From Candidatus Heimdallarchaeota archaeon (GTDB taxonomy: Archaea > Asgardarchaeota > Heimdallarchaeia > JABLTI01): 64,000 bases of DNA. The translations under genes and the position numbers were made by a program. The stretch covers positions 32,001 to 96,000 of the forward strand of contig JAHLVW010000045.1 in NCBI GenBank assembly GCA_019058275.1. The letters are read 5' to 3'. Below are positions 14,580 through 14,691 of this stretch, in pieces; within the stretch, counting starts at the first letter, position 1, and every line of letters begins with the position of its first letter. The notes beneath the pieces are model-generated. The model did no database searches. It had not been told where the DNA came from and was given only the letters and a program-made list of their open reading frames with translations.

Positions 14580-14630
14580 ATGTTTACCTTGAAAATTCAT
14601 CTAGATATCACTTGGCGTGATTGGTTTTAA
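14580..14630 (+). CDS. Putative trpS leader peptide MFTLKIHLDITWRDWF (uORF with two Trp codons)
   Basis: ATG 14580, TGG at 14613-14615 and 14622-14624, TAA 14628-14630; AAGGTT SD-like element just upstream; 85 nt before the trpS start. Confidence 0.6.
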   Translation: MFTLKIHLDITWRDWF

Positions 14631-14691
14631 TCCCTCTAGATGATGTTAGGTAAAGCAAGCAGCTGTTTTTAACATTCTTTGGAGGTTTTTT
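14583..14691 (+). promoter_or_regulatory. Putative attenuator with alternative hairpins in the trpS leader
   Basis: 14583-14605 can pair with 14635-14654, or 14633-14657 can pair with 14664-14685, the latter followed by T6 (14686-14691). Confidence 0.55.

Follow-up and report, generated by a model that had tools for sequence, protein, structure and literature searches.

Leader-peptide control is a textbook bacterial mechanism, which relies on ribosomes that read the mRNA during or soon after its synthesis. An archaeal leader-peptide attenuator was not found in a full-text literature search. The subject of this work is the leader of a tryptophanyl-tRNA synthetase (TrpRS) gene, trpS, from a Candidatus Heimdallarchaeota archaeon. 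The gene is located in a 64,000-nucleotide (nt) stretch of contig JAHLVW010000045.1 (positions 32,001 to 96,000, hereafter the window), the DNA of which originates from sediment metagenomes. The leader is a conserved two-state RNA that contains a short upstream open reading frame (uORF) with two Trp codons. Comparison of its orthologs suggests that it probably acts in cis and sets the output of an auxiliary TrpRS by the ribosomal decoding of these two codons. If true, ribosomal amino acid sensing extends beyond bacteria. The Heimdall group comprises the archaea closest to eukaryotes, and a conserved, covarying leader in front of an aminoacyl-tRNA synthetase (aaRS) gene in this group would link the uORF-based control of eukaryotes with bacterial attenuation.

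The archaeal leader shares several traits with the trpL (RF00513) and pheST leaders of E. coli: a leader frame of 14-16 codons, two Trp codons near its end, a stop codon just before a hairpin and U-run, and mutually exclusive pairings. However, trpL is built from four segments (with the pairings 1:2, 2:3 and 3:4), and there the stalled ribosome favors the antiterminator. Such a four-segment logic was not found at the archaeal locus, where only three segments (A, B and C) are present. Moreover, a modelled stall at the first Trp codon (W1) favors the hairpin that would sequester the Shine-Dalgarno (SD) sequence or act as terminator. In the ermC and cat leaders, the leader frame is likewise followed by an SD-sequestering hairpin, and the position of the ribosome decides on the fold. 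An SD inside a hairpin downstream of the leader frame was also found here. Unlike the archaeal leader, ermC and cat sense drug-bound ribosomes, and in their four-segment layout the stall frees the SD. In the archaeal case, the cue would be the decoding of Trp, and a stall-to-SD logic is not evident.

A ribosome-mediated transcriptional attenuation was reportedly described in 2010 by Vecchione and Sello (J Bacteriol 192:3565, cited in PMC4787780) for trpRS1 of Streptomyces coelicolor, which is said to encode an auxiliary, antibiotic-resistant TrpRS. This gene too is reportedly a second TrpRS beside a housekeeping copy, with a short Trp-codon leader frame and alternative RNA structures. In contrast to the archaeal leader, the system is bacterial, its transcription attenuation is reported to be induced by falling tRNA-Trp charging, and the sequences are unrelated. 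The archaeal leader further differs by the location of the SD in the off-state hairpin and by its three segments. The T-box leaders of Firmicutes trpS precede the same kind of gene, present a UGG in a loop and would share the tRNA-Trp charging signal. The archaeal leader, however, is ~120 nt long, contains a conserved reading frame, and has no T-box model match, no Stem I platform and no T-box sequence. A scan of positions 13000-16500 against Rfam (E up to 5) gave no family match for the leader, neither to T-box nor to Trp_leader (RF00513). Ribosome profiling of Caulobacter crescentus revealed a small leader coding sequence on the trpS mRNA (Schrader et al. 2014, PMC4117421). Both loci have a translated-looking mini-frame with Trp codons directly upstream of trpS, but the Caulobacter leader is bacterial and leaderless, and no two-fold RNA was described for it (PMC4117421).

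The elements of the archaeal locus, in window positions, are the following:

14537..14546 (+): TATA-like box (T7ATA), an A/T-rich box at a fixed distance from AGGTTG in 8/8 orthologs.
14569..14576 (+): leader 5' end; it carries a conserved SD-like motif, AGGT, with the uORF ATG 7 nt downstream, and contributes the 5' strand either to helix P0 in fold I or to a small 5' hairpin in fold II.
14580..14630 (+): leader uORF of 16 codons, encoding MFTLKIHLDITWRDWF, with Trp codons TGG at 14613-15 and 14622-24 and its stop at 14628-30.
14583..14605 (+): segment A, composed of A1 (14583-89) and A2 (14597-605), the 5' strands of helices P1a and P1b (fold I).
14607..14621 (+): hairpin P2, AUCAC-UUGGC-GUGAU; its loop contains the first Trp codon.
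14633..14657 (+): segment B, composed of the anti-SD CCTCT (14633-37), B2 and B1; its partner is A or C.
14659..14664 (+): 3' strand of P0, which lies within the apical stem-loop of B:C in fold II.
14664..14685 (+): segment C, the 3' arm of B:C, ending in GGAGG (14681-85), which is taken as the trpS SD.
14686..14691 (+): T6 run, a possible termination signal (T5C in relatives).
14694..14726 (+): ATT frame; its ATT lies 8 nt past the SD and, from frame comparison, probably starts trpS in relatives.
14716..15804 (+): trpS, encoding a clade A (auxiliary) TrpRS of 362 amino acids (TIGR00233 match).

The original prediction, made from the window sequence alone, had proposed the pairings of segment B, the leader stop and the T6 run, and a direct read of the sequence places all of these where they had been claimed. 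A1 (TTTACCT, 14583-89) is complementary to AGGTAAA (14648-54), and A2 (TCATCTAGA, 14597-605) forms a perfect 9-bp complement with TCTAGATGA (14635-43). The B:C pairing includes several G-U pairs, and B indeed starts after a gap of 2 nt behind the leader stop. The A:B fold is real as well, yet it is larger than had been supposed: positions 14571-76 also pair with 14659-64 (P0), and a small hairpin is added at 14607-21 (P2). The complete element measures 131-132 nt in all 8 clade A orthologs of the genus (TrpRS identity 67-94%). Alignment shows the TATA-like box ~25 nt upstream of a conserved AGGTTG in each of these 8 orthologs. Judged from archaeal promoter geometry, the transcript probably starts near 14568-14570.

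The expected Trp-codon leader frame before trpS proved to be conserved when the 8 orthologs were compared. The uORF has the same length of 51 nt in all of them, from ATG to TAA, and follows the pattern M-F-x4-H-L-x3-W-R-x-W-F-stop. Both TGG codons are kept in 7/8 orthologs, and the remaining one (L008) contains TAA in place of the second TGG. Synonymous changes are found in conserved codons (TTG/TTA, GAT/GAC, CGT/CGC, TTT/TTC and CTA/TTA). The conserved residues F2, H7, L8, W12, R13, W15 and F16 are each encoded within a conserved helix, which makes the constraints on peptide and RNA inseparable at these positions. In an arrest peptide of the TnaC type, conserved residues would stall release at the stop codon when free tryptophan is present. 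Programmed frameshifting at the second Trp codon (W2), in the sequence W2-F-stop, was considered as well. It was rejected, since no conserved slippery sequence was found there in the ortholog alignment.

The leader RNA is a two-state structure that is real and conserved, in which B pairs either with A (fold I) or with C (fold II). This part of the original prediction holds, and compensatory changes were found for both folds. In fold II, the RNA forms three hairpins. The first, at the 5' end, covers the ribosome site of the uORF, an extended one surrounds the Trp codons, and B:C is the third. In the 8 orthologs as aligned by MAFFT, 86% of the cells of fold II are paired, against 38-52% for slid controls, and 8 pairs have changed on both sides. 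Its covariation score of 0.251 (0.142 in shuffles) was reached by none of 500 shuffles, although the relatives of the leader are few and closely related, so that the shuffle statistics overstate their independence.

Fold I is one long hairpin, built from P0, A1:B1, A2:B2 and the apex hairpin at 14607-21. In an alignment of 11 copies, 81% of its cells are paired, 12 pairs have changed on both sides, and the covariation score (0.291 versus 0.160 in shuffles) is again reached by 0/500 shuffles, but this alignment had been fitted to the fold I model and is thus biased towards fold I. On the plain alignment, fold I scores only marginally above shuffles because its helices shift register. When the ortholog transcripts are cut before segment C, fold I is the predicted structure of every one of them (z -2.2 to -4.7). 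All orthologs are predicted to form P0 with 14659-64, although L007 and L008 build it from different sequences, and 5/7 of the P0 pairs have changed on both sides in the fold I alignment. For P1b (A2:B2), the 8 counted pairs are paired in 8/8 orthologs, where the sole change (CTA to TTA) keeps a G-U pair. In the P2 hairpin, A:U is replaced by G:C in 3-4 sequences and U:A by A:U in others.

The stability of the proposed pairings also exceeds that of shuffled controls. The B:C hairpin alone reaches -21.4 kcal/mol (z -4.53), with 0/200 shuffles as good. The A:B region reaches -20.2 kcal/mol (z -2.59), and folding of the whole leader gives a z of -3.67. Across the orthologs, the energy of fold II minus that of fold I lies between -5.7 and +7.7 kcal/mol; in the window it is about -4.3. 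In these modelled energies, the two folds would be near balance, as expected of a switch.

At the 3' base of the B:C hairpin lies GGAGG, as part of GGAGGTTT, which is invariant in the 8 orthologs. In this genome, GGAGG precedes 4.5% of the long open reading frames (0.7% expected), with a spacing peak at 7-10 nt, and is thus a Shine-Dalgarno sequence in use. The partner of GGAGG in the hairpin is an anti-SD (CCUCU, CCUCC or CCUUC), located 2-3 nt past the uORF stop. In the relatives, the trpS frame is open back to GGAGG, and a likely start codon follows 6-8 nt after it: ATG in L007, GTG in L008 and ATT in five orthologs. L004 is without any canonical trpS start codon. Comparison of the trpS frames revealed a conserved N-terminus, I/M-T-K/N/E-E/Q, with synonymous ACT/ACA. 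With GGAGG in its base and the start codon 6-8 nt downstream, B:C is thus predicted to sequester the SD. It would act as an SD-sequestering hairpin at least as much as a terminator. From the ortholog sequences, SD sequestration is the feature that appears conserved everywhere, unlike the hairpin strength and the T-run.

The T6 run at 14686-91 is present in the window, but it is specific to this strain: the relatives contain T5C and one of them T3. The underlying change, C14691T, creates both the T6 and a TAA codon (14691-93). In addition, an extra G at 14718 shifts the frame in the window strain and makes ATG 14716 the start. The contigs of two related strains, obtained from other samples, have C at 14691 and are without the extra G at 14718. 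The source sample's own contig matches the window, so an assembly error is improbable. In the window, the TAA upstream and the extra G confine the ATT frame to a 10-codon stub (14694-14726), which overlaps ATG 14716. A gene-60-like bypassing, from UUU/UUC at the uORF end to UUU after GGAGG, was considered as well and rejected. L006 is without an in-frame UUU landing codon, the window has TAA at that place, and L007 and L008 contain ordinary starts.

The proposed mechanism starts with a transcript from ~14568, the first ~120 nt of which would adopt either of the two exclusive folds. Fold I would hide the uORF's own ribosome site and leave segment C single-stranded, so that the trpS GGAGG is exposed. 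In fold II, B:C would pair the anti-SD CCUCU with GGAGG, and the T-run comes next, 8 nt before the ancestral start codon. Ribosomes on the uORF would cross segment A and the Trp codons and then stop 2 nt before B. Along this path, the partner of B (A or C) would depend on the position or dwell of the ribosome. The switch most likely acts on translation, via access to the SD, and premature termination at the T-run may contribute. We infer that the uORF is translated and that charged tRNA-Trp is sensed, and likewise infer the sign of the response. With its ~130 nt, the leader would be a mutable test object for how Asgard archaea couple transcription to translation, use the SD and terminate at oligo-T.

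During transcription, fold I can presumably form ahead of the synthesis of segment C, and the SD should therefore be exposed if the leader is not translated. Once a ribosome occupies A, B would be pushed towards C, and a ribosome at the stop codon would open the anti-SD:SD base. The reach of the ribosome was modelled with an assumed footprint of 28 nt (-15 to +12 relative to the first base of the A-site). At W1 the ribosome covers ~14598-14625 (A2 and the small hairpin), at W2 it extends to ~14634, and at the stop to ~14640. It had been suggested that a ribosome stalled on the Trp codons masks the base of B. This does not agree with the modelled geometry, in which the W1 stall ends before B and the W2 stall reaches only ~14634.

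The effect on the SD was estimated for the 8 orthologs by constrained partition-function folding, which is equilibrium modelling only. With a ribosome at W1, B:C is formed and the SD is paired in 8/8 orthologs (mean probability of being unpaired about 0-0.12). With a ribosome at W2, F16 or the stop, the SD becomes about 0.35-0.5 unpaired in L001, L003 and L007, whose SD is closed in the ribosome-free state. For the remaining five, a ribosome at any of these three positions leaves the value the same as without one. The values without a ribosome range from 0 to 0.5 among the orthologs. Following this geometry, a W1 stall would turn trpS off, while finishing the uORF or leaving it untranslated would turn trpS on. 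The modelled sign is tentative, as homeostasis and the bacterial trpS controls would predict the opposite one.

A covariance model found the element only in this genus, in 9/11 genomes including the window genome (G000). Apart from two orphan copies, it sits before trpS. In genome G010 (L105:1501-1760, contig C17), trpS has been cut to a stub of 50 amino acids, and both leader TGG codons are mutated (to TGA and TGT). The L105 locus is followed by the same neighbor gene of 125-128 amino acids as in the window. One of the orphans belongs to the window genome itself (C61:229382-229516, minus strand, corresponding to L106:1501-1635), the other (L107, G004:C156) to the closest relative of this genome. 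The uORF of the G000 orphan encodes MFNLTIHLESTFWWYWFY with 3 Trp codons and ends with FWWYWFY and a stop. That of G004 has three in-frame TGG as well and ends with FWWHWF and a stop. The 3 in-frame TGG are thus kept, though the surrounding hairpin differs. Fold I of the orphan reaches -40.9 kcal/mol (z -3.9), and one compensatory change (C:G to U:A) in A2:B2 distinguishes the two orphan copies. Their T-run is a T8 in G000 and a T6 after an A in G004. Both are without GGAGG, B:C hairpin or downstream reading frame and lie convergent to an M20 peptidase gene, whose 3' end they face. From its sequence and setting, an orphan copy could be a small RNA, a micropeptide gene or an attenuator-gated antisense transcript.

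Besides the few relatives and the fitted alignment mentioned above, several observations weigh against a leader that controls trpS through the decoding of its Trp codons. With only three segments, it is not clear how a stall at a Trp codon would raise trpS expression. Substitutions in the uORF are not 3-periodic (8, 8 and 7 variable columns by codon position). Nearly every conserved uORF codon sits inside a conserved helix, so RNA constraints alone could preserve much of the frame. In the window strain, ATG 14716 lies 30 nt from the SD and the ATT frame is broken; its coupling between SD and trpS may thus differ from that of the relatives. Finally, the orphans have no downstream gene, so the module may serve something other than cis control.

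A more specific version of the mechanism follows the modelled sign. Its logic would depart from the classical bacterial scheme: completion of the uORF, with both Trp codons successfully decoded, would flip the SD-sequestered fold to the SD-exposed fold, which in turn shuts the ribosome site of the uORF. The auxiliary TrpRS would thus be produced while charged tRNA-Trp is at hand, and the stand-alone copies would be Trp-responsive small RNAs or micropeptide genes. This version is put forward tentatively, and as a whole it seems rather unlikely.

A different explanation is a pure transcription attenuator, in which B:C and the U-run would stop RNA polymerase, A:B or a ribosome would allow read-through, and GGAGG would be a mere stem base. 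The original prediction had taken B:C with U6 for a terminator, and the shape of one is present: a stable hairpin is directly followed by T5-6 in 7/8 orthologs. In general, archaeal RNA polymerase terminates at oligo-T tracts. The bacterial leader of an auxiliary TrpRS, that of S. coelicolor trpRS1, is reported to work at the level of transcription. Ordinary SD spacers of the genome look different, since T5 occurs in 0/71 of the GGAGG-to-ATG spacers, which consist of A for 54%. The T-run after GGAGG is thus atypical, which leaves room for a role in termination. However, a terminator is only one way to read an element that has GGAGG in its 3' base and a variable T-run. L006 has only T3 and a hairpin of -7.1 kcal/mol, yet it retains CCUCC:GGAGG. 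Hairpin-plus-T sites are not enriched in the region either (9 versus 8.5 in shuffles). Archaeal termination differs from bacterial intrinsic termination; the hairpin is not needed there, and hence a suppression by A:B is hard to explain. In addition, the invariance of GGAGG and the start codon 6-8 nt further on would be left without an explanation. As the sole mechanism, attenuation of transcription is improbable, but it is compatible with a leader that acts through its SD, and the two are not exclusive.

The leader might also be an RNA-only switch, in which a ligand, tRNA-Trp or a protein such as TrpRS binds the UGG hairpin and the reading frame is a structural by-product. Such a switch would agree with the covariation of both folds, with the Trp triplets in a conserved loop and bulge, and with the location of nearly all conserved codons within helices. 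It would also agree with other families, where the motif TTGGACTGG is conserved while the apparent reading frame varies by lineage. On the other hand, the Rfam scan returned neither T-box nor Trp_leader, and ATG, SD-like AGGT, stop and length are all preserved. The orphans retain their in-frame TGG in a different hairpin context, and several leader types that are unrelated to one another also have a TGG in the frame of a start codon. A T-box-like double recognition of tRNA-Trp was rejected by geometry: the two UGG are 6 nt apart, which would be too close for the anticodon and acceptor end of one tRNA. Overall, a switch that works without translation of the uORF appears quite improbable.

The weakest alternative is an independent small gene or RNA, in which uORF, fold I and T-run form their own unit (a micropeptide or trans-acting RNA) and the trpS promoter lies inside segment C; two orphans between convergent genes, which have T6 (G004) or T8 (G000), no downstream frame, and a retained peptide and fold I, would fit this, as would the T-rich segment C, but the T-run is only 24 nt away from ATG 14716, most orthologs have no TATA-like sequence in segment C, an invariant GGAGG would be purposeless before a leaderless start, and the element decays along with trpS in G010, so that this explanation is hardly credible.

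The cis-acting leader on trpS, which is preferred here, can further be placed in the context of the TrpRS genes of the class. The trpS product scores 215.8 bits against TIGR00233 (cut-off 176.75). A second TrpRS, 34% identical, is encoded on contig C30 of the window genome, which is 92.8% complete. In a tree, 88 TrpRS genes collected from the 83 genomes of the class fall into three clades: clade A holds the window gene, clade B occurs in family f2 only, and clade C holds the other copy of the genus. Within the genus, the clade A trpS has the leader and the clade C copy is without it. The window gene is thus a second TrpRS beside a housekeeping copy that is without this leader, in the manner of S. 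coelicolor trpRS1.

TrpA, TrpC and TrpE were not found in the window genome at its 92.8% completeness, and TrpB gave only weak matches far below cut-off. TrpA was not found in 12 genomes of family f1 either. Since the Trp synthesis genes were not found, the lineage probably imports tryptophan, which would make trpS an obvious Trp-linked target. Judged from gene content, the family f1 lineage is probably a tryptophan auxotroph that still keeps two TrpRS genes. An auxiliary TrpRS under dedicated control, where Trp synthesis genes were not found, bears on how such an organism copes with a scavenged amino acid. A wider Trp regulon was considered as well and rejected, since genes of trp biosynthesis that might carry the leader were not found.

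A general aaRS leader mechanism was also considered for this genome. The upstream regions of 11 other aaRS-family loci were without a convincing cognate-codon uORF, and a genome-wide scan for amino-acid-biased uORFs gave nothing above chance. On these two results, the general mechanism was rejected. The genome also encodes two class I synthetases of ~1065 amino acids (tRNA-synt_1; C101:32393-34237 and C10:12881-14725), which may be duplicated aaRS; no clear cognate-codon uORF was found upstream of either gene. Two genes downstream of trpS, an EamA-family transporter is encoded on the opposite strand (16359-17417, minus). Its similarity to YddG, an exporter of aromatic amino acids, is weak (E 1e-7, far short of the cut-off).

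Short frames with Trp codons, unlike the one described here, are also common upstream of trpS in other families of the class, and this holds for clades A, B and C alike. ATG-started uORFs with Trp were found at 19/26 clade A loci (baseline 19% for all long reading frames of this genome), and any-start uORFs with Trp at 28/29 clade B loci (baseline 36%), although the loci within these counts are mutually related and thus not independent. The UGG motif occurs in 57/90 trpS upstream windows, a figure that is descriptive only, as these sequences had also served to define the motifs. The Trp-uORFs before trpS fall into at least four layouts that are unrelated to each other. One of them reads M-(P)-Y-Q-W and is followed by a conserved hairpin; another ends in M..L-D/E-W-stop, with a GC hairpin 7-8 nt after the TGG.

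The ends with L-D/E-W are seen in family f4 (L016, L038, L043, L082, L051, L056 and L057), before both clade A and clade C trpS. Here, zero to several further codons separate L-D/E-W from the stop. A GC-rich hairpin lies 7-8 nt after the TGG in L016, L038, L043 and L082, and none is clear in L051. The spacing between Trp codon and hairpin is kept in this family even when the stop codon moves.

In family f2 (L023-L031 and L042-L071), a TATA box, CTTATAAAG, is followed at a distance of ~25 nt by the highly conserved motif GTGGTAACTTGGACTGG. Across a covarying inner hairpin, this motif pairs with CAGTCCAA, located ~60 nt downstream. Two readings of the motif are possible: a leaderless uORF, M-S/R-V-V/I-T/N-W-T-G, and, if another frame is used, TTG-GAC-TGG-NNN-stop. 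RNAalifold gave no consensus fold on the MAFFT alignment of the f2 leaders; the single-sequence folds suggest a long 5' hairpin together with an SD hairpin.

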